A DNA stretch of 64,000 nucleotides from Candidatus Aenigmatarchaeota archaeon (GCA_039000165.1 JAWBTW010000002.1:3245-67244); one strand, 5' to 3'. Positions 17,223 through 51,991 are shown, counted from the first letter of the stretch. Notes: generated by a model from the letters alone, not told the origin. Numbers and translations: made by a program.

Positions 17223-17301
17223 AATCTTTTTTTAAGAAAAAAGAATTATTTAAAACTTTGCTTAGGTCAAAGCTTTAACTTTATTTTTTCTCAAATTTTA
17301 T

Positions 17302-19200
17302 TTGATTAAAATGAGTGGAGAAATAACAAGTTTGGATTTGAGGTTTTTGGTAAAAGAGCTTAAAGAAGCCTTAGAAGGAGGAAAAATTCAAGGGATTAAA
17401 CAAGAAGGCAAAACATTTTTATTCGAAATATACAAAAAAGAAAGGTTTTTTCTTAAAGTTTTGCTTGATAAAGCAATTTATTTAACCAAAAAGAAGGAAA
17501 AATTCGAAAAAGCAACGAGTTTTTGTATGCAACTTAGAAAACATTTGTTAGGAAAAACTATAAGGAACGTTTTCCAAGTTGGTTTTGATAGAATTGTTGA
17601 GTTGGAAATTGATGGCTTAAGCTTAATTTTTGAAATTTTCGGGAATGGAAACTTAATTTTAGCAAATTCTTCTGGCTTGATAATAACTGCTTTCGAAAAA
17701 AGAGAGTGGAAAGATAGAAAAATAATACCAAAAGCTCTGTACAAGTACCCACCTTCTTGTATAAATCCTTTCGATAAAAACTTTTTTGATTTCCAAAAGT
17801 TTTTGAAAGAAAAAAAGAGCGAAATAGTCAAGGTTTTAGCTTCGGATTTTGGTTTATCAAGAAAGTACGCAGAAGAAATTTGTGAGAGATTAGGGTTTAA
17901 AAAAGAAAAAATCTGCTCAGAATTGGATCAAAGTGAAATTGATAAGCTGTTTAGATTTTTTGAAGAACTTAAAAATGTTGAGATTAAGCCACATGTTATT
18001 CTAGAAAATAAAAAAATTATCGATTTTTTTCCTTTTGAAACAGAGAAATTTAAAAAAAATGAAAAAATTTACTTTGAAAACTTTAACCAAGCTATCGAAA
18101 GTTATTTCGAATTTTCCTTAGAATCTAAAAAGTTGGAAGAAAGATTAGAAGAATTTATGAAAAAAGAAGAAAAAATTAGAAGAATTTATGAAAAACAAGT
18201 AGCTCAGCTTGAAAAATTGAAAAAAAATTACGAAAAATACAGCAAAATTGGGAAAATCCTTTACGAAAAATATCAGTACTTCGATGTTTTTCTAAAGAAA
18301 ATCGCTGAATTTATAGAAATGAAGCTAGGTTGGGAAGAGATTAAAGCAAAAATTAAGGCCTTCGATACAGAAAAAATTCTAAAAGAAATCGATGAAACCA
18401 AAGCTACCATAAACTTTTTAATCGATGGAAATGAAATCCAGCTCGATTTTAGAAAAAGTTTAGAGGAAAATGCAAACTTTTATTTTGAAAAAGCAAAAAA
18501 AGTGAAAGAAAAGATTGAAAAATTGAAAAAAGCTCTTGAAAAAATAGAAATTGAAAAAGGGAAAAAAGAGGAAGAGAAGAAAAAAGAATGGTATGAAAGG
18601 TTTAGATGGTTTATAAGTAGTGATAATTTCTTAGTTATAGCCGGTAAAGATGCTAAAACTAACGAGGAAATAGTGAAAAAATACGCTAAAGAACAAGATA
18701 TAATCCTTCATGCAGACATTCATGGAGCACCTTTTGTTCTGATAAGAAATGAAAAGAAAAAAGAAGTACCATTAGAAACTATAATGGAAGCAGCAGAGTT
18801 TGCTGCCAGCTATTCAAAAGCATGGTTTTTGGGTTTGGGTAGCACAGATGTTTTTTATGTAAAGCCTGAACAAGTTGTAAAGGAAGCTTTACCCTTAGGA
18901 AGTTTCAAGATTAGAGGAAAAAGAGAATGGCTTAAGAAGGTTCCACTCAGGGTTTCGATTGGGCTAAAAATTGAAGATGGTATAAAAATCATAGCCGGAC
19001 CAGTAACAGCAATAAAAAAACAAACTCCTTATATAGTTACTCTTTGTCCAGGAGATATTAACTCAGAGAAGTTAGCTAAGGAAATAAAGAGGGAGTTTTT
19101 ATTAAAAGTTCCTTTTGAAGTAAAAAGCTTGGTTGAAAAAATAGATCTGGAAGAAATTAAAAGGCATATTCCTTACGGAAAGGGAAAATTGGTTCTATGA
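17302..19200 (+). CDS. NFACT-family protein (archaeal Rqc2/NEMF/FbpA homologue)
   Basis: NFACT-N like N-terminus, long coiled coil, NFACT-R/DUF814 signature DIILHADIHGAPFVLIR. Confidence 0.75.
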   Translation: MIKMSGEITSLDLRFLVKELKEALEGGKIQGIKQEGKTFLFEIYKKERFFLKVLLDKAIYLTKKKEKFEKATSFCMQLRKHLLGKTIRNVFQVGFDRIVELEIDGLSLIFEIFGNGNLILANSSGLIITAFEKREWKDRKIIPKALYKYPPSCINPFDKNFFDFQKFLKEKKSEIVKVLASDFGLSRKYAEEICERLGFKKEKICSELDQSEIDKLFRFFEELKNVEIKPHVILENKKIIDFFPFETEKFKKNEKIYFENFNQAIESYFEFSLESKKLEERLEEFMKKEEKIRRIYEKQVAQLEKLKKNYEKYSKIGKILYEKYQYFDVFLKKIAEFIEMKLGWEEIKAKIKAFDTEKILKEIDETKATINFLIDGNEIQLDFRKSLEENANFYFEKAKKVKEKIEKLKKALEKIEIEKGKKEEEKKKEWYERFRWFISSDNFLVIAGKDAKTNEEIVKKYAKEQDIILHADIHGAPFVLIRNEKKKEVPLETIMEAAEFAASYSKAWFLGLGSTDVFYVKPEQVVKEALPLGSFKIRGKREWLKKVPLRVSIGLKIEDGIKIIAGPVTAIKKQTPYIVTLCPGDINSEKLAKEIKREFLLKVPFEVKSLVEKIDLEEIKRHIPYGKGKLVL

Positions 19201-32826: not shown

Positions 32827-32910
32827 GGGCTCGTCCGGTAACCTGGATAGCCGACTGCGCTTCGGTTTTGAGGAAACGCAGTAGTGAGGGTTCAAATCCC
32901 TCCGAGCCCA
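32827..32910 (+). tRNA. tRNA-Arg (anticodon UCG) with a 10-nt intron at 37/38
   Basis: Acceptor GGGCUCG/CGAGCCC, T-arm GAGGG-UUCAAAU-CCCUC, anticodon stem CUGCG/CGCAG enclosing 17 nt. Exon CUUC pairs with intron GAGG, leaving an AAA bulge and a 6-nt loop (BHL). The intron is at 32866-32875. Confidence 0.75.
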
Positions 32911-40118: not shown

Positions 40119-40376
40119 GGCGAGCTAGCCAGGTAGCTTCGGCTTTGCATCAAAGCAAAGCTGAGGAAGTTCCCTCCATCCCTTAAGGTGCTGCGCAAGC
40201 AGCAGGCTGAGAAGCCTCTGCCAGAATCAGAAACGAGACCTTTTAGCTTCGCTAACCATGATGCGAAAGCTGAGTTGGGGCTAAAAGGATGAAACGGTCT
40301 GGCAGGCCTGGGATGCAAGTTTGAAACGCTTAGACAAATGCTACCAAAACATAAGAGGGGCTATGGCTAGCACGCC
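40119..40376 (+). ncRNA. rnpB: candidate RNase P RNA (minimal form)
   Basis: GC-rich noncoding island. The 5'/3' ends pair (GGCGAGCUAGCC / GGCUAGCACGCC, P1), followed by a P2-like strand and a P3 hairpin GCUUUGC-AUCAAA-GCAAAGC. Then comes a CR-I-like GAGGAAGUUCCCUCCAU, a GNRA-capped hairpin UGCUGC-GCAA-GCAGCA, and a CR-V-like CAGAAnC region near the 3' side. Confidence 0.5.
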
Positions 40377-43612: not shown

Positions 43613-44134
43613 ATGTCGATAAGAAGTACTTTTTACGAGGAATTAGTAAGATACGGAATAGATCCTTTAGAAGTGGTTAAAATCGAGTTTAAGAAAAGTA
43701 GGAAAGGAACTAAAGTAGTTGTTCATACAACGAACAAACCGATTAATATATCCGACCCCTATTTTGTAACGCTAGCTAAAGCGACAGCCTTACAAGTTCC
43801 GTTAGAAAAACTTTTTTCCAGGGATTACTTACTTAAAAGGCTTTACGGAATAATCACCGTTTTTGAAGGAAAGGAAATGCCGTTTTCTGAATTTCTCCTT
43901 TTGAACGCAAAGGTATCAACAGAAGAAATAGCCAAAAGGTTGGAAGAGTTAGAAAGAAAGTATTCCGTGGATAAGCATTTGAAAGATTACAAGGAAGGGT
44001 TGAAAATAAGAATTTATAAAAAATTAGCCTTAACTTGCGGTATATCCTTTAGAGATTTCGAAAAAGATAACGAAGACAGCACTACTGAAAACCTGATAGA
44101 TGTTTTAGCCCATTACTATTATCAAAGCACGTAA
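43613..44134 (+). CDS. hypothetical protein
   Basis: ORF. No motif. Confidence 0.3.
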   Translation: MSIRSTFYEELVRYGIDPLEVVKIEFKKSRKGTKVVVHTTNKPINISDPYFVTLAKATALQVPLEKLFSRDYLLKRLYGIITVFEGKEMPFSEFLLLNAKVSTEEIAKRLEELERKYSVDKHLKDYKEGLKIRIYKKLALTCGISFRDFEKDNEDSTTENLIDVLAHYYYQST

Positions 44135-44997
44135 GACAAATAATCCAAGAAACCGCTAAGCTTAAGGATTTCTTCGATATAATTTTTAAAATTCTCTCTT
44201 TCGGCCCTTATTTTCAAGGAATTCCCCACACTTAGAAGTTCTCTGTATGTTCTTTTCATCAAAGACTCTTCTATTTTCTTTTTTTGGCCGTTTGAGGCAA
44301 GCACTATTCTTTTTATTCCCTCTTCTGGAATCTCGTTCAATAAAATTTGCTTTGTTTCTTTATTTCTTAGAAGTTTTTGTAAGATTGAAGGATCGTTATA
44401 AGAGTCAATAACGCAGAAAGTTAGGAAACCAAGCTCCTCACTAGAATTTGGAGAATACTTAAATTCCCAAGCCTTTGTGAAAGTTATCAAAGCTTCTTTA
44501 AAACTTTTAACCAAATTCTTCATTTGCTCGTTGTTAACAAAGTACCAATACCTGAGAAGGTTTGCTCCGTTCCTGTAATCAAGGTAGGTTTTAACTCGAG
44601 AAAGGCTGTCGCTTACTTCAATCCATTCCTGAGGCAGAAAAATTAACTTGTTTTCCCTTTGATTTTTGATGCTTGGAATCGTTTCGTAAATCATTTTCTT
44701 TACTGGTTGAAGAAAGTTTTCATATAAGTTATGCATTACAAAAAGTTCTTTTTGCATTGCTGGAATCTCTGTTACAAGTTGGGATGTTAGTTCTTCCAAC
44801 TTTTTGAACTGAGTTGAAATGCTTTCGTACAAGGGTAAAGAGACTTCATAGCCTCTATCTTCGCTTAGGTAAGCGTCAAGCCATGTTCTGTCCCAAAAAA
44901 CATCCAAAGAAGAAATTATCTGGTAAAAGCTTCTTTCATCTTCCAAGTATTTCTCCAGCAAACCCCAATTTTCAAACTTTATTTTTTCTTCTTTCAT
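44122..44997 (-). CDS. hypothetical protein
   Basis: ORF. No motif. Confidence 0.3.
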   Translation of the reverse strand: MKEEKIKFENWGLLEKYLEDERSFYQIISSLDVFWDRTWLDAYLSEDRGYEVSLPLYESISTQFKKLEELTSQLVTEIPAMQKELFVMHNLYENFLQPVKKMIYETIPSIKNQRENKLIFLPQEWIEVSDSLSRVKTYLDYRNGANLLRYWYFVNNEQMKNLVKSFKEALITFTKAWEFKYSPNSSEELGFLTFCVIDSYNDPSILQKLLRNKETKQILLNEIPEEGIKRIVLASNGQKKKIEESLMKRTYRELLSVGNSLKIRAERENFKNYIEEILKLSGFLDYLSYVL

Positions 44998-45092
44998 TCT
45001 TTAACCTTTTTTAAAATGAAAAAGATAACTCTTTTTTAACTTATATAAGGAAGTAAGTTTTTTAAAAGTTTCTGTTTGCTGACTTTTTTTAA

Positions 45093-45108
45093 TGTTAGAC
45101 GTCTAACA
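45093..45108. repeat. 16-bp perfect palindrome TGTTAGACGTCTAACA, copy 1
   Basis: Exact copy. Sits in the divergent intergenic region between genes 44122(-) and 45194(+). Confidence 0.9.
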
Positions 45109-45193
45109 GAAAAGCAGCCAACAAACATTTCATAGATTTTTTTGGAATATTCCATACATAACTTATAAATACTTTATGGAATATCCTTAAATT

Positions 45194-45490
45194 ATGGAAA
45201 AAACCTTTGAAGAAATGCTTGAAAGCGTAAGAGTAAAGAAAGTCTCTCAACTTACAGCAAAAGTTTTTGAAATTATTCATTCTAGATGGCCCACAAATCC
45301 GCTAGAAGTTGCTGAGATTTTAGGAGATAAAGGAAAAGAGAAAACGCTTTCTGCAAAGTACCTTTACCATTTTCGCAAGCTTAAGGAAATGGGGTTAATA
45401 GACATGAAAAAAGTTGGAAACACTTACATAGCATGGCCTACTGAGATTGAAAAGCTTAGGGTTGTGCATGAATTATTAAAAGGGTTGTGA
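45194..45490 (+). CDS. small winged-helix protein (putative regulator)
   Basis: 98 aa with a wHTH-like pattern. First gene after palindrome copy 1. Confidence 0.4.
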   Translation: MEKTFEEMLESVRVKKVSQLTAKVFEIIHSRWPTNPLEVAEILGDKGKEKTLSAKYLYHFRKLKEMGLIDMKKVGNTYIAWPTEIEKLRVVHELLKGL

Positions 45491-45499
45491 GGTGAGAGA

Positions 45500-46036
45500 A
45501 TGGGGATAGCTGTTATGTTGAAAAAACTTTTGCTTGGAAGGGCTTTTTCTGCTGAAGAAGGAAGGGTTACGATTTTGGGAAGATATAACGTAACTTTAGT
45601 GGAAAGTTGTGGATTTGCGTATCTTCATCAGAAAATATTTGAAGAACTTGGAGAAAAAAAGGCTTTTAAAATTTTAATGGAAGCTACAGAAATTGCAATC
45701 GAAAACGCAACAAAAGCATTTGGACTAGTACCTTTTTTTATGAGCATAGAAAAACTTTTACCTTTAACAGATTTTTATGGATTAGGGAAATTTAGCGTAA
45801 TTCACAAAGAAGAAAATGAAAAAAAAGTTGTATTGTTAATTAAAGTTGAAAATTCTCCACTTACAGAATATGCCAAACAAAAATGGGGAAAGAATTCAAA
45901 AATATGTAAAATAGTAGAAGCAAATTTAATTGTGACGGCTAAACTTATCTACAAAAAAACACCAAAAGTAGAGGAAATTTCCTGCTACACTAAAGGTGCT
46001 CCTTATTGTACATTTCGTGTAGAAATAGAAAAGTGA
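45500..46036 (+). CDS. V4R-domain (small-molecule binding) protein
   Basis: About 178 aa with a C-terminal CYTKGAPYCTFRVE Cys pair typical of V4R domains. Confidence 0.45.
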   Translation: MGIAVMLKKLLLGRAFSAEEGRVTILGRYNVTLVESCGFAYLHQKIFEELGEKKAFKILMEATEIAIENATKAFGLVPFFMSIEKLLPLTDFYGLGKFSVIHKEENEKKVVLLIKVENSPLTEYAKQKWGKNSKICKIVEANLIVTAKLIYKKTPKVEEISCYTKGAPYCTFRVEIEK

Positions 46037-46041
46037 TTTCT

Positions 46042-47493
46042 ATGATTGAAAAAATAGCATCTTGGTATGTTAAAAGAAAAAGAAATGAAATAGCAAAAAA
46101 AGTGAGAAAAGCAATGCTTTCCATTCCATTCTACAAACAACAAATTAAAAAAAATTCAATCGATTTACATGAAGTAAGAGAAATCAACTCAATAGAAAAA
46201 CTTGATAAATTTCTTCAAAAACATAAAATAAATTGGTTAGAATCTACCGAACTAATGAGAAATGATTTTTCTTCTCATTTAAGTCTCGCTCCTACAAATA
46301 AAAGAATATGGGTGCAAGTATCTTCTGGCTATAGTTTGGTAGAAAAATTGAGAAGTGGAGAAAATTTTTTAGAAAGTGTACAAAAATTTAAAAGAAAAAA
46401 AGTAGCCTTTACTCAAAAAGATTTAGAACTTGTGATAAAAGAAGTTTATCTACGTGGGGCTAAAAGAATAGCCTCAAATGATTCGATACCAACTATTTCT
46501 ATTTTTTCCAGAATGTATATTTATGGTGGTTCAGGAACATATCCTTTTGCAGCTCTTGTAAGAGTATCACAGAAGTTTCCTTTAAGAATTTTACCCTACG
46601 GTGAACCGTTAAGCCAGGAACAACTTTGTGATTATGTACTTGATTCCGTAGAGAATAACACTAACTGGATAATCACTACACCATCAATTTTAAGCGACAT
46701 AGGTAGATTTATGGTAGAAAATAATCTAAGGTACAGGAATCTAAGGTATGTAGGTATGGGTGGATTTAAACCAAGTAAAGAAGTTGTAAATCTAGGACAT
46801 GAAATAGGAGCTAAAATAATTATAGACGCTTACAGTGTTCAAGAATGTATGCCACTCGGTTGTATAGCCTCTGGAACTATATCAAGTGAAGACAAAAATT
46901 GGGAAACTAATGAAGGATTAATGGTTATGGGAAATTTGTGTCATGTAAGAGTAGTCGATAAAAATGGGGAAAACGTTAGTGAAGGTGAAGAAGGAGAAAT
47001 AAGAATAACTTCACCCTTTGAAGGAACGTTTTTAATTGACTATGCTCCTGGTGATATCGGTAAACTTTTAAGTTATACTTCTAGTGTCAGTTTAGATAGT
47101 TCTAGGGTAAATCTTCCTTTTCCTTTACTTTCCTATGACATAAGAAGAAAAGAAGAAAATGAATATGTAAAGATAAAAGAGTATCCAGTTTCTGTTGGCA
47201 TTCTAAAAGAAATCTTAACATCTTATGTTGATTATAATTTTGCGATTTGCAAGCCACAAACAAAGGGAGAACTGCTAATATTAATTCCAAGTAATATTGA
47301 AGAGAGAAATTATGAAGAAATGTGTAAAAAGATAAGATATACAGTTTGCCCTTTACGATATAGCCTCCTTAGATTCAAAAAAATAGACGAGAGTAAACTT
47401 AAAAAAATTGTTTTCCCAAGTTTACACCACAAGCCACACAATCTTATCCTCTCGCCCTCAAAAGAACTAGAAAGTGAGCTCTATGCCAGCTAG
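46042..47493 (+). CDS. divergent adenylate-forming enzyme (PaaK/F390-synthetase/LuxE-like ANL superfamily), tentative
   Basis: SSG.. P-loop remnant (VQVSSGYS), YAPGDIG (Y.TGD-like) and GEIRITSP. The start is chosen at ATG 46042 after the V4R stop; the ORF track starts at 46006. Confidence 0.4.
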   Translation: MIEKIASWYVKRKRNEIAKKVRKAMLSIPFYKQQIKKNSIDLHEVREINSIEKLDKFLQKHKINWLESTELMRNDFSSHLSLAPTNKRIWVQVSSGYSLVEKLRSGENFLESVQKFKRKKVAFTQKDLELVIKEVYLRGAKRIASNDSIPTISIFSRMYIYGGSGTYPFAALVRVSQKFPLRILPYGEPLSQEQLCDYVLDSVENNTNWIITTPSILSDIGRFMVENNLRYRNLRYVGMGGFKPSKEVVNLGHEIGAKIIIDAYSVQECMPLGCIASGTISSEDKNWETNEGLMVMGNLCHVRVVDKNGENVSEGEEGEIRITSPFEGTFLIDYAPGDIGKLLSYTSSVSLDSSRVNLPFPLLSYDIRRKEENEYVKIKEYPVSVGILKEILTSYVDYNFAICKPQTKGELLILIPSNIEERNYEEMCKKIRYTVCPLRYSLLRFKKIDESKLKKIVFPSLHHKPHNLILSPSKELESELYAS

Positions 47494-48187
47494 CTTAACT
47501 GATTTGCTCTGGGAAATCTATCCATTTTTTTACGACTCCCTAAACAACTTTGCTCCATACAAAAAAATGATAAGAGATACTGCTGAAAGCTTAAACTTTA
47601 GTAAAGGGAAGAAATTTCTTGACGTTGGTTGCGGAACAGGAAATTTGATTCAATATCTAGTTAAAAATTCTAAGGAAATCGAGGTTTGGGGTATAGATGC
47701 TTCAGAGCAAGCGCTTAAAATTGCCTCAAAAAAAATTAAAAATTCAAACGCTAACGTCAAGCTTTGCCAGTACTATTTTGAAGAAAAGCTTCCTTTTAAT
47801 GATAACTACTTTGACGGAATCGCTGCTGTTAACTTTATAAACTACTTAAGCCCAAGCTCTTTACAAAATTTTGTAAGGGAAGCGAGGAGAATTTTAAGAA
47901 AGGGGGGAAGGCTAAGCTTAGTCTACACAAGCGAAGTAGAATACTTTAAGGGAAAAAGCGGCTTTAAGTACTCTTTAAAAGAAAAACCGAAACAAACGAT
48001 TTTATCCCTTCCTTTCTGCGTGGCTGTTGGCTTGATGAACATTCCCATGAAATTAAAAGTCAACCTTATCCCTTATTCTAAAACTTATGTAGAAAAACTT
48101 CTTGAGGAAAACAACCTCAAGATCCTTAACACAAAAACAACTTATTATTCTCATAGTACCTTGCTAACAACTAGCGAAAAAATTTAA
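47474..48187 (+). CDS. class I SAM-dependent methyltransferase
   Basis: Motif I LDVGCGTGNL. Motif post-I and II spacing is typical. Confidence 0.75.
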   Translation: MSSMPASLTDLLWEIYPFFYDSLNNFAPYKKMIRDTAESLNFSKGKKFLDVGCGTGNLIQYLVKNSKEIEVWGIDASEQALKIASKKIKNSNANVKLCQYYFEEKLPFNDNYFDGIAAVNFINYLSPSSLQNFVREARRILRKGGRLSLVYTSEVEYFKGKSGFKYSLKEKPKQTILSLPFCVAVGLMNIPMKLKVNLIPYSKTYVEKLLEENNLKILNTKTTYYSHSTLLTTSEKI

Positions 48188-48194
48188 AAAACTT

Positions 48195-48827
48195 TTGGAA
48201 TATTCCAATTTATCTTTTAACAAACAAATTAATTATATGTTTGAACCTCCAAAAGGTTATGAAAAATATTGCGAACCAACTTTTTTGTGCGAATCTAACC
48301 TGCCAGAAATAAAAGAGCTAGCCCAAGCTTTAGCAAAAGATAAAAAAACTCCTGAAGAAGCTGCTAGAGCATTTTTTTATTGGGTAAGGGATAATGTTGC
48401 TTGGAAAGTAGAAGAGATAGTTGGTGCTAAGGAAACGCTAAAAAGAAACCCTATGCATGGAGTATGTGCAGATAAAGCTAATCTCTTCATAGCTCTTTGC
48501 AGAGCTGTTGGAATTCCTGCAAGGTATCTTTTAATATTTAGATGTCAGCTTAACGCTAAGGTAAAGGATTTTCCAAAAAAAGTTGGGCATGTAGCTGCTA
48601 AAGTTTACTTAAACAATGAATGGAAAGTTGTAGATCCAACTTTTGGAAAGGATACGGAAAAGCTAATTCCTTTAAGTGAGTTTGACAGACCAAGCTGGAA
48701 AAGAATTGCTGGAGTCTTGAGAGTAAGAGAGCTTTCTGTTTCCTTAGCTTTATTTTCCATGCTTATTCTAAGGTTTAGTCGCTCTAGCCTAAAGATGAAA
48801 GAATTGATAGAAAGTTTGAGAAAATGA
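48195..48827 (+). CDS. transglutaminase-like cysteine protease-fold protein
   Basis: GVCADKANLFIALCRAVGIPARYL has the catalytic Cys context. Downstream GHVAAKVYL...WKVVDPT supplies His and Asp. Confidence 0.6.
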   Translation: MEYSNLSFNKQINYMFEPPKGYEKYCEPTFLCESNLPEIKELAQALAKDKKTPEEAARAFFYWVRDNVAWKVEEIVGAKETLKRNPMHGVCADKANLFIALCRAVGIPARYLLIFRCQLNAKVKDFPKKVGHVAAKVYLNNEWKVVDPTFGKDTEKLIPLSEFDRPSWKRIAGVLRVRELSVSLALFSMLILRFSRSSLKMKELIESLRK

Positions 48828-48839
48828 AAAGGTTGTTAA

Positions 48840-48855
48840 TGTTAGACGTCTAACA
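48840..48855. repeat. 16-bp perfect palindrome TGTTAGACGTCTAACA, copy 2
   Basis: Exact copy, 13 bp after the transglutaminase-like gene stop. Confidence 0.9.
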
Positions 48856-48990
48856 ATTTCTAAACTAACCACTTCCACAAAGGTTTGAAAACAATTTTTT
48901 TGTTTTCTATTTTTAATTGATCTTCATAATCCCAGGTTATCACTAGCAAATCCTTGCATTTAAGCAAGGAGGATGCTTTAAAATTGTTAA
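48856..48990 (-). pseudogene. 5'-truncated 3'-terminal fragment of a COG1373/DUF4143 AAA ATPase paralogue
   Basis: Reverse strand translates in frame to KASSLLKCKDLLVITWDYEDQLKIENKKIVFKPLWKWLV*. This matches the C-terminus of gene 50356-51639 (KASKELKCKDLLVITWDYEGQQKIKNKKIVFKPLWKWLLVDFF*). About 85% nt identity over roughly 110 bp. Confidence 0.6.
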
Positions 48991-48999
48991 ATGTCTAAC
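48984..48999. repeat. degenerate copy (13/16) of the TGTTAGACGTCTAACA palindrome
   Basis: TGTTAAATGTCTAACG, 12 bp downstream of the serS stop. Confidence 0.5.
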
Positions 49000-49010
49000 G
49001 TATAAAAAAC

Positions 49011-50291
49011 TCATTCACCCAAAACCTCAATTCCGTTCATGTAAGGAACCAAAACTTTTGGAATTTTCACGCTCCCGTCTTTTTGCTGGAAGTGTTCGAG
49101 AATGGCTAGCATGGTCCTGCTTGTCGCTAAGGCAGTAGAGTTTAAAGTATGGACAAAACCTTTTGGTTTTTCTCCTTCCTTTTCTCTAAACCTAATGTTA
49201 AGCCTTCTTGCTTGGTAATCTGTGCAATTAGAGTTTGAGCCTATTTCCCTAAACTTTCCGTCAACCATCCAAACCTCTGTATCGTACTTTTTTGCCGCTA
49301 CTGTTCCTATATCTCCTGTGCAAACGTTTACTACACGGTAATGCAAACCTAAAGCTTGATAGAGCTCCTCACAATTTCTTTGCAGCTCTTCGTGCAAATC
49401 CCAGGAATCTTCTGGCAAGCAAAAAATGAATTGCTCAACCTTGTTAAACTGATGCATCCTGAAAAATCCTTTCGTGTATTTTCCGTGCGTACCTATTTCT
49501 TTTCTAAAACATGGACTTATTCCAACAAACTTCAAAGGCAAGTCTTTTTTATTTAAAATTTCATTCATGAACATTGCTCCTATAGGATGCTCAGAAGTTG
49601 CTATCAAGTATAAATCTTCATTCTCTATTTTGTAAGTTACCATTTCAAAATCGCTTGGGTCTATCATTCCTTCGTAAGCTTTTCTGTTTATCATGAAAGG
49701 AGGCTCTACAGGAATATAGCCTTTTTTAATCATAAAATCTAGAGCAAACTTTTGAATGGCTAGATCGAGCAAAACCAATTCTTTTTTTAAGTAGAAAAAG
49801 CCTGCCCCAGCAACTTTTGCTGCCCTTTCTTGATCTACCAAACCCAACTCTAAAGCAATTTCTAGATGATTTTTTGGTTTAAAGTTAAACTTTGGTGGGG
49901 AACCAACTCTTCTTATTTCAACATTATCGTTTTCATCTTTACCAAAAGGTACAGAATCGTGCAAAATGTTCGGTAGCTTGAGCAAAATATCCCTTACTTC
50001 TTTTTCCAGTCTGCTCGACTCTTCTTCCATTCTTTTTATTTCGTCATGGATTTTCTTAGCTTCGTTTAAGATTTTGCTTGTATCCTTGTTTTCTTTCTTC
50101 AACCTTGAAATTTCTAAAGTAAGTTTGTTCCTTCTGTTTCTCAGCTTGTTTATTTCTGTTTTGAGGCCACGCAATTTCTTGTCAAGCTCTAAAAGCCTTT
50201 CGAACATTTTCAATTTTTCCGGGTCTTGCCTCTTTTCCAAATTTTTCCTTACAAACTCTGGCCTCTCTCTTATCAATTTAATGTCAAGCAT
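49011..50291 (-). CDS. serS: seryl-tRNA synthetase
   Basis: N-terminal coiled-coil arm (MLDIKLIRERPEFVRKNLEKR...), class II motifs FRKE and GSNSNCTDYQARRLNIRF. 426 aa. Confidence 0.9.
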   Translation of the reverse strand: MLDIKLIRERPEFVRKNLEKRQDPEKLKMFERLLELDKKLRGLKTEINKLRNRRNKLTLEISRLKKENKDTSKILNEAKKIHDEIKRMEEESSRLEKEVRDILLKLPNILHDSVPFGKDENDNVEIRRVGSPPKFNFKPKNHLEIALELGLVDQERAAKVAGAGFFYLKKELVLLDLAIQKFALDFMIKKGYIPVEPPFMINRKAYEGMIDPSDFEMVTYKIENEDLYLIATSEHPIGAMFMNEILNKKDLPLKFVGISPCFRKEIGTHGKYTKGFFRMHQFNKVEQFIFCLPEDSWDLHEELQRNCEELYQALGLHYRVVNVCTGDIGTVAAKKYDTEVWMVDGKFREIGSNSNCTDYQARRLNIRFREKEGEKPKGFVHTLNSTALATSRTMLAILEHFQQKDGSVKIPKVLVPYMNGIEVLGE

Positions 50292-50339
50292 GTTTTTACC
50301 TTAATTTCAATTAATTAAAGGTTGCTCAAATATTTTCTT

Positions 50340-50355
50340 TGTTAGACGTCTAACA
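50340..50355. repeat. 16-bp perfect palindrome TGTTAGACGTCTAACA, copy 3
   Basis: Exact copy. Abuts the AAA ATPase stop codon and lies 49 bp upstream of the serS start. Confidence 0.9.
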
Positions 50356-51639
50356 TTAAAAAAAGTCAACCAATAACCATTTCCACAAAGGCTTAAAAAC
50401 AATTTTTTTGTTTTTTATCTTTTGTTGACCTTCATAATCCCAGGTTATCACTAGCAAATCTTTACATTTAAGTTCTTTGCTTGCCTTTATTAAAGACCTA
50501 ATTTCCCTTTTCTCAACCTCATCTTTACTAGAAGCATAAGTAACTTGAATTAGTTGATTGATTTTTAAACCTTTTTTCACGGCAAAATCTACCTCAAAAT
50601 CGTTCGATTTGAAGTAAAAAATTTCATCAACTTTTCCTTCAAACTTTTTTCTCAAAAGAGAAATAGCTACCAAGTTTTCCATTTTTTTCCCAAAATCTTT
50701 TGAAAACCTTGGTTCAATCGCAAAGTAAACATTATCTACCAAATAAATCTTTGCAGGATACTTTGCTCTTTCTCTGTACTTTAAAGAAAATCTTTTTATC
50801 GGAAAAACAAACAAAGCCTCTTCCACATACCTCAAATAATTCGCTAAGGTTTTTTTGCTAACTTTCAAGCCGATCGATTTCAATTCTTTTTCAATTTTTG
50901 TTAATGAGATATAGGAGGAAGAGTTTGCTATGCAATACCTAACAAAATAATCCATAAGTGTAACATTTTTTATTTTAAACCTTTCTATCAAATCCTTAAA
51001 AAATACGGTAGTAAAATAGGTTCTTGCTATTTCAATTTTCTTGTTTTTCTCGTCAGCAAGAAGAATTTCAGGATACCCTCCAAAATCAAGAAATTCTTTC
51101 AAAAGCATTAAAATTTCACCAACCTTTGCCTTAGAAATTTCTTCCCTAACTACAAACTTTTTTAGCTTAAGAAACTCTTTAAAGGTAAAAGGAAAAATTA
51201 TATAAGGAATACACCTTCCCCTTAGCTCGGTTGAAATCTCTCTGCTTAAAAGTTTTGAAGAAGAACCAGAAATTATTATTTTATATTTTTGGAAATTGTG
51301 CAAAGTTCTAACGAACGAAGGCCATTCTTCTAACTCTTGAATTTCGTCCAAGAAAAGAAAAACTTGATTTTTAAACAGTGAATTTACTTCCTTTAAAAAC
51401 TCAGAAACACCAATTTTTCTTACTCTTGGGTCGGTAAAATCTATGTAAACAACATTATCTTTGGAATTATTCTTTTCAAAGAGCTCTTTTATTAGCTGGA
51501 ACATAAAATAGGTTTTACCAGCTCTTCTTGGTCCTATAAGGGAAACTATGTGCTTGTTTATCCATACCTTTAAATCTCTCTCGATTATATCTTGCGGTAG
51601 TTCTTTCTCTTTCCACTCTAGTAAAACCTCTCTTAGCAT
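50356..51639 (-). CDS. AAA+ ATPase, COG1373/DUF4143 family
   Basis: Walker A GPRRAGKT, Walker B FLDEIQ, C-terminal DUF4143-like region. 427 aa. Confidence 0.75.
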   Translation of the reverse strand: MLREVLLEWKEKELPQDIIERDLKVWINKHIVSLIGPRRAGKTYFMFQLIKELFEKNNSKDNVVYIDFTDPRVRKIGVSEFLKEVNSLFKNQVFLFLDEIQELEEWPSFVRTLHNFQKYKIIISGSSSKLLSREISTELRGRCIPYIIFPFTFKEFLKLKKFVVREEISKAKVGEILMLLKEFLDFGGYPEILLADEKNKKIEIARTYFTTVFFKDLIERFKIKNVTLMDYFVRYCIANSSSYISLTKIEKELKSIGLKVSKKTLANYLRYVEEALFVFPIKRFSLKYRERAKYPAKIYLVDNVYFAIEPRFSKDFGKKMENLVAISLLRKKFEGKVDEIFYFKSNDFEVDFAVKKGLKINQLIQVTYASSKDEVEKREIRSLIKASKELKCKDLLVITWDYEGQQKIKNKKIVFKPLWKWLLVDFF

Positions 51640-51709
51640 AAAAGAAATATAGGAAACAAAAATATATATTTTTTGTTTCCCTTAGGGAAATTTTAGAAAG
51701 TTGGTTTTT

Positions 51710-51725
51710 TGTTAGACGTCTAACA
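51710..51725. repeat. 16-bp perfect palindrome TGTTAGACGTCTAACA, copy 4
   Basis: Exact copy, 71 bp upstream of the AAA ATPase start codon. Confidence 0.9.
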
Positions 51726-51754: not shown

Positions 51755-51991
51755 CTAACTTTCGTTTAAATTTTCATAATTTTTATTCTCTCCAAATTTC
51801 TTTTTTCCTAATAAATAGCCTAGAATAGCTCCATAACAAAAAGCAAAATCTTTTTCTTTTCCTTCTGCTAGCTTTATTCCGAACTTTAAGCCTTTGATAA
51901 AAGAATCCAAGTATTCTTTTCCTTCTGCCTCTTCAAAAAATTTTTCCATCAAAACTTTTGTAAAATTTAAGTATCTTTTTTCTTCTTCCAC
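51755..51991 (-). CDS. hypothetical small protein
   Basis: 78-aa ORF. No motif. Confidence 0.25.
   Translation of the reverse strand: MEEEKRYLNFTKVLMEKFFEEAEGKEYLDSFIKGLKFGIKLAEGKEKDFAFCYGAILGYLLGKKKFGENKNYENLNES

Follow-up and report, generated by a model that had tools for sequence, protein, structure and literature searches.

We analyzed a stretch of 64,000 nucleotides from a Candidatus Aenigmatarchaeota archaeon (GCA_039000165.1, JAWBTW010000002.1:3245-67244; hereafter the window, with positions counted from its first letter), which has a GC content of 33% and contains an archaeal RNase P RNA at 40120-40375, and focused on a perfect 16-bp palindrome, TGTTAGACGTCTAACA, that recurs within a segment of 6.6 kb. 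As shown in Table 1, four exact copies of this 16-mer lie among genes that include serS, an ATPase gene and an open reading frame (ORF) for a winged helix-turn-helix (wHTH)-like protein followed by a gene for a V4R protein; further genes around the copies encode AMP-ligase-like, S-adenosylmethionine (SAM) methyltransferase, transglutaminase-like (ending at 48827), KaiC-like and type IV pilus proteins. An earlier note on this DNA had placed exact copies at 45093, 48840, 50340 and 51710, and all four were confirmed, as was the intergenic location of all copies by gene calls and the placement of copies 2, 3 and 4 after the transglutaminase gene, between serS and the ATPase gene and upstream of the ATPase gene, respectively. 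The fifth copy, TGTTAAATGTCTAACG, which matches at 13 of the 16 positions, also exists but starts at 48985 and not at 48984 as had been noted. No window copies with one or two mismatches were found. The chance expectation for matches with three or fewer mismatches, determined from 100 dinucleotide shuffles, was 0.27, and none of the 100 shuffles reached five, in line with the earlier claim that the recurrence is far beyond chance. The 16-mer is the sole repeated long perfect palindrome of the window, and Rfam gave no match in the palindrome region.

Table 1. Features around the 16-bp palindrome in the window and the tandem ATPase genes of the closest relative
Feature	Position	Strand	Remarks
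ATPase 3'-end remnant, 18 nt (...LLTFF*)	45075-45092	+	AAA_14/DUF4143 type; directly abuts copy 1
Palindrome copy 1, exact	45093-45108		divergent intergenic region; 95 nt to ATG of 44122-44997(-), 85 nt to ATG of wHTH-like ORF (45194, +)
Palindrome TGGAATATTCCA	45143-45154		just upstream of the wHTH TATA box
wHTH-like ORF, 98 aa	45194 (start)	+	next to copy 1
V4R protein	45500		downstream of the wHTH-like ORF
Palindrome TGGAATATTCCA, second copy	48196-48207		5' end of the transglutaminase ORF
Palindrome copy 2, exact	48840-48855		12 nt past the transglutaminase stop codon; beside ATPase pseudogene remnant; convergent, no promoter served
ATPase paralog remnant, 117 nt	48863-48979	-	aa 385-423 at the 3' end, 85% identical to the intact gene; bracketed by copy 2 and the degenerate copy
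Degenerate copy, 13/16	48985-49000		10 nt past the serS stop codon
serS, seryl-tRNA synthetase	49011-50291	-	likely regulated target of copy 3
Palindrome copy 3, exact	50340-50355		48 nt upstream of serS ATG (50291), canonical phase; abuts the ATPase stop codon (50356)
AAA_14 + DUF4143 (+ Mrr_cat-like) ATPase	50356-51639	-	flanked by copies 3 and 4
Palindrome copy 4, exact	51710-51725		70 nt upstream of ATPase ATG (51639); 29 nt past the stop codon of ORF 51755-51949 (64-78 aa)
Tandem ATPases of JAVZHQ010000001.1	L015 2018-3295 and 3692-4990

We searched for the exact 16-mer in one genome per GTDB species (596 Gb) and obtained 85 DNA stretches with approximately 105 exact copies. As many as 81 of these copies were located in 13 metagenome-assembled genomes (MAGs) of Aenigmatarchaeota or "uncultured archaeon" with a GC content of 30-50%, and the remaining 24 loci were single copies in unrelated bacteria. 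The closest relative found, the scaffold JAVZHQ010000001.1 (802 kb; 93-94% identity to the window), contains 17 exact copies in blocks at 136-152, 200-224, 312-328, 408-432 and 784-800 kb, the densest of which is the ortholog of the window with five copies. We conclude that the motif is genome-wide and clade-wide and not a property of the island in the window. The genome-wide count that the earlier note had proposed as a check thus does not reveal a local cassette marker. A viral origin of the 16-mer was rejected: IMG/VR held only five contigs with single matches, none of them archaeal-looking, and the two that were examined are high-GC bacterial phage sequences with an unrelated, cro/cI-type operator use.

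Conservation of the 16-mer was near all-or-none. In the 431 kb of archaeal loci used for copy statistics, 85 copies were exact, eight had one mismatch and one had two, with variation almost confined to position 6/11 (consensus TGTTA-N-ACGT-N-TAACA). Further, in nine orthologous site pairs the identity of 16/16 was kept, with 40-nt flanks that were 55-88% identical. We also note an instance of site turnover, in which the divergent dCMP-deaminase/NFACT promoter has an exact site in JBBITC (L078 743-852) and the window equivalent (17223-17310), which is approximately 18 nt shorter, holds only a decayed trace, TTGCTTAGGTCA.

Although 88% of the archaeal-locus DNA was called as ORFs, no copy was found inside a long ORF, and the few copies that overlap ORFs do so with ORFs of 52-159 aa that are probably spurious. 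The position of the copies relative to start codons was not random either: of 50 non-convergent intergenic regions, 27 have a start codon at a distance of 33-53 nt, compared with 9.9 ± 2.7 regions when sites were placed at random within the same spacers, and none of 5000 simulations reached 27. The same phase was observed in nine of 14 divergent regions, which have no gene end to constrain the position of the site. In the phased regions, the palindrome is followed by an A-rich stretch, a TATA-like box at about +11 and, approximately 25 nt later, the ATG, and this layout, as judged from the sequence, matches a leaderless archaeal promoter that has the palindrome immediately upstream of the transcription factor B recognition element (BRE) and the TATA box. 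By our own count, approximately 20 non-orthologous genes are served in this way, most of them housekeeping genes, including those for TFB, TyrRS, SerRS, Cbf5, TatD, dCMP deaminase, UDG, rubrerythrin, a P-type ATPase and membrane proteins. The 16-mer is thus a dyad-symmetric, intergenic and promoter-positioned site that is kept at orthologous promoters, as an operator would be, and these comparisons make it very probable that the palindrome is a cis-regulatory site to which a protein binds. The earlier note had named three options, namely an operator for a dimeric regulator, a recombination or cassette boundary site and an element resembling a miniature inverted-repeat transposable element (MITE), and the first of these is the best supported kind of element.

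The flanks of 77 unique sites are alike only in their A/T-tract composition, with a T-tract before the site and, after it, an A-tract (55-68% A over positions +3 to +9) and then T at +11/+12. We considered a boundary element, in which the bound or hairpin-forming palindrome, with oligo-T flanks on both transcribed strands, would halt read-through between closely packed genes as a roadblock or terminator and the start-codon phase would result from genome compaction only, an explanation that is partly compatible with that of a regulon. Such a role is consistent with the symmetry of the flanks, as the T-tract before and the A-tract after are present in any context, and with the frequency of copies, which does not differ among convergent, tandem and divergent regions; many copies follow a stop codon at a distance of 0-30 nt, and some convergent spacers, 31-66 nt long, contain hardly anything other than the palindrome. 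However, the phase persists in divergent regions without a gene end, and the copies at the Cas2-like gene described below sit between the TATA box and the ATG. In addition, the T-run precedes the hairpin in each direction, opposite to intrinsic terminators, and the stem is A/U-rich, weak and no longer than 6-8 bp. A bacterial-type intrinsic terminator was rejected on these grounds, i.e. the T-run is on the wrong side and there is no G+C-rich stem. Overall, we consider it decidedly unlikely that the palindrome is a boundary element in place of an operator; the symmetric oligo-T flanks and the convergent copies do suggest an additional or alternative roadblock role.

In several species, the palindromes are clustered most densely around a 69-aa gene next to the TFB gene, and the product of this gene is predicted to have a Cas2 fold. 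In the closest relative, the gene lies in locus L026 (JAVZHQ010000001.1, block 312-320 kb; example NCBI QXS48_03410, P0001). We gathered 26 distinct members of this family by sequence search, metagenome scan and gene-context look-ups; among 1.84 billion representatives of clusters at 50% identity, the family amounts to 94 clusters at E<1e-3. It is a small family of 67-76 aa proteins, separate from canonical Cas2, which occurs in Aenigmatarchaeota-type and unclassified metagenomic contigs. In 22 of the 26 members, a 16-bp palindrome (with no more than one asymmetric pair) is located within 66 nt upstream of the ATG, and in 18 members it lies within 10 nt of the ATG, between the TATA box and the start codon. 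A second copy is often present 32-63 bp further upstream and a third just past the stop codon. The gene neighbors vary by lineage and include genes for TFB/SUI1, PIN-ATPase, aromatic lyase/Rpi, TyrRS/SerRS, MgtC and ribosomal proteins. In a core group (L026 4818-6431; L016, L054, L076, L091-L097 and L102), the TFB gene directly follows the Cas2-fold gene and has the TyrRS gene downstream of it, and in L026 4818-6431 the Cas2-fold gene is also beside a probable SUI1/aIF1 gene; the Cas2-fold/TFB segment of L026 and its equivalents carries three or four palindromes.

The sequence of the palindrome upstream of the Cas2-like gene was found to change with the subfamily of the protein. The palindrome is TGTTATACGTATAACA (two copies) in L107, TGTTATACGTCTAACA (two copies) in L102, TGTTAAACGT(C/T)TAACA in L088 and L100, TGATACACGTGTATCA in L113 (P0024), TGTAACACGTGTTACA in L118 (P0028), TGTAATACGTATTACA in L116 (P0034), TGTCTCACGTGAGACA in L117 (P0059), TGTCGCAGCTGCGACA in L122 (P0032) and GTTACATATGTAAC at the paralog in L024. 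A site in its own promoter that tracks the lineage of the gene is standard comparative-genomics evidence for an autoregulated DNA-binding protein. Because the palindrome is present in the promoter of the Cas2-like gene and its sequence co-varies with the subfamily, we assigned the Cas2-like protein as the putative autoregulated reader of the site, and we put the odds that this assignment is correct at slightly better than even. An element acting at the RNA level was rejected for the Cas2-like gene, as the transcription start site (TSS) predicted from the TATA-to-palindrome spacing falls on the ATG and not before the 3' edge of the palindrome, which would therefore lie outside the mRNA. As a separate observation, CAYUFF010000025.1 (L065 24-39 and 1039-1054), a genome with the canonical palindrome, also has TGTCTCACGTGAGACA, the operator type of P0059, together with a one-mismatch copy. 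This hints at two parallel regulons in one genome that might be read by paralogous Cas2-fold proteins.

The AlphaFold2 (AF2) model of the Cas2-like protein (predicted local distance difference test score (pLDDT) of 94.6) has a beta-alpha-beta-beta-alpha-beta topology, and Cas2 proteins rank first among its fold matches. The protein is basic, as is its conserved helix 1, which includes a near-invariant arginine (R22) in a (N/W/F)R motif. Matches to profiles of canonical families were borderline, with 24.0 bits to PF09827 for one member (cut-off 23.8) and 20.7 bits for P0001, and 21.1 bits to TIGR01573 (cut-off 24.5). Unlike the Cas2/VapD family (PF09827), the candidate is shorter, and the aspartate at the Cas2 catalytic position is not universal, having been lost in some members; further, neither cas1 nor any other cas gene was present in the fetched loci with examined gene calls (L091-L107 excluded), in which no search was aimed at CRISPR arrays. 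Two related Pfam domains of the Cas2-like type, PaaX_M and ChrB_N, occur in transcription regulators. The DNA-binding domains of papillomavirus E2 and of EBNA1 are likewise small ferredoxin-like domains with a beta-alpha-beta-beta-alpha-beta arrangement, in which helix 1 of the dimer reads a short palindrome (ACCGN4CGGT). They provide a structural precedent for a Cas2-fold dimer that would read TG-N4-ACGT-N4-CA.

Taken together, our preferred explanation is that the palindromes are the clade-wide regulon sites of a dimeric protein, for which the Cas2-fold protein is the most likely candidate, and we assign this combined explanation, which is drawn from comparative sequence data, a probability of approximately 0.6. 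Several observations weigh against it. A regulon would usually include more degenerate sites than the very few seen here. The A/T-tract flanks are equal on the gene-start and gene-end sides, which also fits a boundary or terminator role, and convergent spacers are not depleted of copies (11 of 61, compared with a background of 102 of 516), which indicates that some copies serve no promoter. Three of the four window copies are outside the canonical phase. The 64-kb window does not contain the Cas2-like gene, which has been shown only in the 93-94% identical relative and not in the genome from which the window derives, and the atypical family members L120 and L121 have no such palindrome upstream. 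Finally, no canonical DNA-binding motif (helix-turn-helix (HTH) or ribbon-helix-helix) was detected in the Cas2-like protein, which gave only matches of the Cas2, PaaX_M and ChrB_N type, and we know of no precedent for a Cas2 fold as a sequence-specific operator reader.

The latter point also bears on a different assignment, in which a conventional, unlinked HTH regulator (MarR-, ArsR- or XRE-like) reads the site and the Cas2-like gene is no more than the best conserved of its targets and the one that it represses most tightly. HTH dimers can read this 16-mer, to judge from its occurrence near genes for such proteins in bacteria. In three Clostridia MAGs (L017 5528, L030 1117 and L038 1691), the identical 16-mer precedes a conserved MarR-family gene, with a consensus -10 box on one side and the ATG on the other, and, to judge from this position, it is probably the autoregulatory operator of the MarR-family repressor. 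In the IMG/VR contigs L112 (10670-10724) and L109 (670-719), which have a GC content of 62-65%, two or three variants of the 16-mer are arranged in tandem, in L112 in the divergent region between a RecT-like gene and a cro/cI-type HTH gene; these phage arrays are an unrelated, convergent use of the sequence as an operator. As unrelated bacterial HTH systems use the 16-mer, the site alone does not identify its reader, and this, too, counts against our assignment. However, the neighbors of the Cas2-like gene differ by lineage and include no conserved HTH gene, and the operator changes together with the subfamily and the paralog of the Cas2-like protein, so that an unlinked factor would need to have co-diversified in parallel. 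We thus regard an unlinked HTH regulator as rather unlikely.

The earlier note had named the wHTH-like protein encoded at 45194 as the possible regulator, and this part of its proposal is probably wrong, as the promoter of the wHTH gene carries a different palindrome. This second palindrome, TGGAATATTCCA, is present twice in the window (Table 1) where 0.14 copies are expected by chance, and degenerate versions of it occupy the same promoter position in wHTH orthologs from two other species (57-63% identity). From its position and conservation, TGGAATATTCCA is probably the own box of a split MsvR-like regulator that consists of the wHTH protein (45194) and the V4R protein (45500), the similarity to MsvR being a weak match. 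The promoter of the wHTH ortholog in L047 does not have the 16-mer. We therefore rejected the wHTH protein as the reader of the 16-mer. The wHTH-V4R genes lie beside palindromes in three species, with full operon synteny in the closest relative only. Together with the housekeeping function of serS, this is at odds with the description of the region as accessory, which stands for the ATPase paralogs alone, as only these vary.

At first sight, an ATPase gene that is flanked by inverted repeats and accompanied by ATPase remnants has the look of a mobile cassette. The remnant beside copy 1 was recognized from an inverted pair of 39 nt that is 90% complementary to the copy-3 region, and the degenerate copy that brackets the longer remnant has an ortholog in JAVZHQ (L015 6340) with only one mismatch. 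The ATPase (50356-51639, minus strand) gave a match (6e-101) to PDC-S01, a candidate defence family of PADLOC, in keeping with a variable gene that is present in multiple copies. Compared with the window, JAVZHQ has an extra 1680 bp between the ATPase gene and serS, which contains a 69-aa ORF and a second ATPase gene (42% identity). In a three-way alignment, the window ATPase follows ATPase-1 of JAVZHQ until approximately 65-110 nt before the palindrome and then follows ATPase-2 through the stop codon. Because this switch occurs inside the conserved 3' ends of the paralogs, the difference between the two genomes is attributable to homologous recombination between tandem paralogs and not to exchange at the palindrome. 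The local cluster of palindromes is best explained, on the basis of these alignments, by duplications of the paralog that carried the downstream promoter site along. The ATPase as the key to the palindrome was rejected, as a homolog is present in only five of approximately 62 archaeal palindrome loci and the link is explained by tandem duplication with the downstream palindrome.

These results bear on the partition of the region into cassettes that the earlier note had proposed. Five copies within 6.6 kb, a 1680-bp difference unit that runs from palindrome to palindrome and a wHTH ortholog with a copy 53 nt upstream (L049) are all consistent with a local role, either as a site of site-specific recombination or cassette boundary or as the operator of the wHTH protein. 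However, the crossover of the one indel seen in the comparison with the closest relative is inside ATPase coding homology, the ORFs scanned with Pfam between approximately 41.4 and 55.6 kb gave no recombinase domain, most copies elsewhere have neither an ATPase nor a wHTH gene as neighbor, and the wHTH promoter has its own box, with the 16-mer missing in L047. A recombination site was thus rejected, the proposed synteny check did not support cassettes bounded by the motif, and we consider these local readings extremely unlikely. A MITE was rejected as well: there is no element body, no structure of terminal inverted repeats plus target site duplication, and the copies share nothing past the 16 bp and their A/T-rich flanks.

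A broader version of this idea is that the Cas2-like gene with a palindrome on each side is a minimal selfish or mobile unit, of which the solo palindromes would be footprints or MITE-like derivatives and by which the ATPase genes would be carried or targeted likewise. The Cas2-like gene is indeed often bracketed by copies and has different neighbors in different lineages, ATPase genes and remnants are flanked by copies, and in L088 an asymmetric one-base variant is common to all four local copies. Nevertheless, homology ends at the 16 bp and the A/T tracts, without terminal repeats plus target site duplication, solo sites are kept at orthologous promoters across species despite diverged flanks, and several distant members have a single upstream copy only. 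Further, no transposase was seen among the neighbor genes that were scanned or read by eye, the Cas2-like protein is itself not known to be a transposase, and the IMG/VR matches were single and not archaeal-looking. We conclude that a mobile unit is very unlikely.

The palindrome also resembles the bacterial centromere site parS (TGTTNCACGTGAAACA), a perfect palindrome of 16 bp that is conserved within clades, occurs in origin-proximal clusters and often lies inside genes. The two have TGTT...AACA ends, an ACGT center and few copies per genome in common, and the operator family of the Cas2-like genes shares the frame TG-N4-ACGT-N4-CA. The 16-mer is identical to the parS consensus TGTTTCACGTGAAACA at 12 of 16 positions and has the same length, near-invariance and low copy number, and the variant TGTCTCACGTGAGACA of the P0059 subfamily (L117 732-747) is identical to TGTTTCACGTGAAACA at 14 of 16 positions. 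Unlike parS, the 16-mer sites are intergenic and promoter-phased; they are scattered, at 136-432 kb and 784-800 kb, across a span that exceeds half of the 802-kb scaffold, and the Cas2-like protein is unrelated to ParB, of which no example turned up in the fetched loci, in which no search was aimed at ParB. We treated the resemblance as coincidental and give a parS-like centromere or chromosome-organization site next to no credence.

Palindromes that recur at promoters are known from several systems. In Thermococcales, the regulons of TrmBL1/Tgr (TGM motif) and SurR have a palindrome at many promoters, and a site upstream of BRE/TATA goes with activation, a site downstream of TATA or over the TSS with repression. 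The 16-mer is like these sites in being a recurring promoter palindrome that is also present at the gene of the putative regulator; it differs from them in that the readers of the TrmBL1/Tgr and SurR sites are wHTH proteins (TrmB and ArsR types) acting on degenerate sites, whereas here the candidate has a Cas2 fold and the 16-mer is near-invariant. KorB of plasmid RK2 binds a dozen near-identical palindromic OB operators (TTTAGCSGCTAAA) that are promoter-adjacent or distant. The 16-mer shares the flavor of the half-site (TTAG...CTAA) and the proximal or distant placement with these operators, but KorB is a ParB-family protein of a bacterial plasmid, and the sites described here are associated with archaeal TATA/BRE promoters. 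A regulator with a palindromic operator is thus a known type of system; the near-invariant clade-wide site, its set of targets and the Cas2-fold candidate with its subfamily operators are new. A literature search found no description of the 16-mer or its 12-nt core, or of Cas2-like DNA binders in DPANN archaea.

Based on these comparisons, we propose that a dimer of the Cas2-fold protein would bind the palindrome at approximately 17 exact sites per 0.8-Mb genome and thereby control a regulon across Aenigmatarchaeota-type DPANN archaea. At its own gene, the site is predicted to lie between the TATA box and the TSS, which would be on the ATG, 3-6 nt past the palindrome, so that the bound protein would block recruitment of RNA polymerase and bring about negative autoregulation. 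At the other genes, where the site is just upstream of BRE/TATA, the bound factor could either aid or hinder TFB/TBP, by analogy with TrmBL1/Tgr and SurR. Within the window, the canonical geometry would apply only to copy 3, which by its distance fits a promoter site of serS and has an identical geometry (48 nt) in L015. Copies 1 and 4, at 70-95 nt from the start codons, would be distal sites, and copy 2 fits a site left stranded beside a dead ATPase gene. We also made two observations in the window that concern other elements. An inverted repeat of 29-30 nt, GGAAACAAAAATATATATTTTTTGTTTCC, at 51652-51681 surrounds the TATA-like box of the ATPase gene, is kept in JAVZHQ and may be a separate operator for this gene. 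Further, Rfam matched a tRNA at 32827-32910 on the plus strand (46.6 bits, 84 nt) that was not reported by ARAGORN and may be of the intron-containing archaeal type.

DPANN archaea have tiny genomes, few recognizable transcription factors and no genetic systems, and their gene regulation is almost unstudied. Our analysis provides a cis-element that is near-invariant over species of 30-50% GC, a set of target promoters (including those of TFB, TyrRS and SerRS) and a candidate reader of 69 residues that can be made recombinantly, so that the question of its function can be addressed without cultivation. For annotation, it follows that the Cas2-like genes should not be named "Cas2" and that the palindromes should not be labeled as boundaries of mobile elements or cassettes. 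If the Cas2-fold protein is indeed the reader, a fold familiar from CRISPR adaptation and from toxin-antitoxin systems would have a new use in DNA recognition, and the paired variants of protein and operator would represent a natural specificity code. More broadly, the comparative data raise the prospect, for and against which we see about equal odds, that a branch of the Cas2/VapD fold of approximately 94 clusters consists of autoregulated, sequence-specific DNA binders, each subfamily with its own 16-bp TG-N4-ACGT-N4-CA palindrome, and that the Aenigmatarchaeota member is a global regulator or boundary factor for approximately 20 housekeeping promoters, including those of TFB and aminoacyl-tRNA synthetases. 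If true, these proteins would be a new class of archaeal transcription factor, and their existence would be a hint of DNA contact by the Cas2-like domains of PaaX and ChrB.

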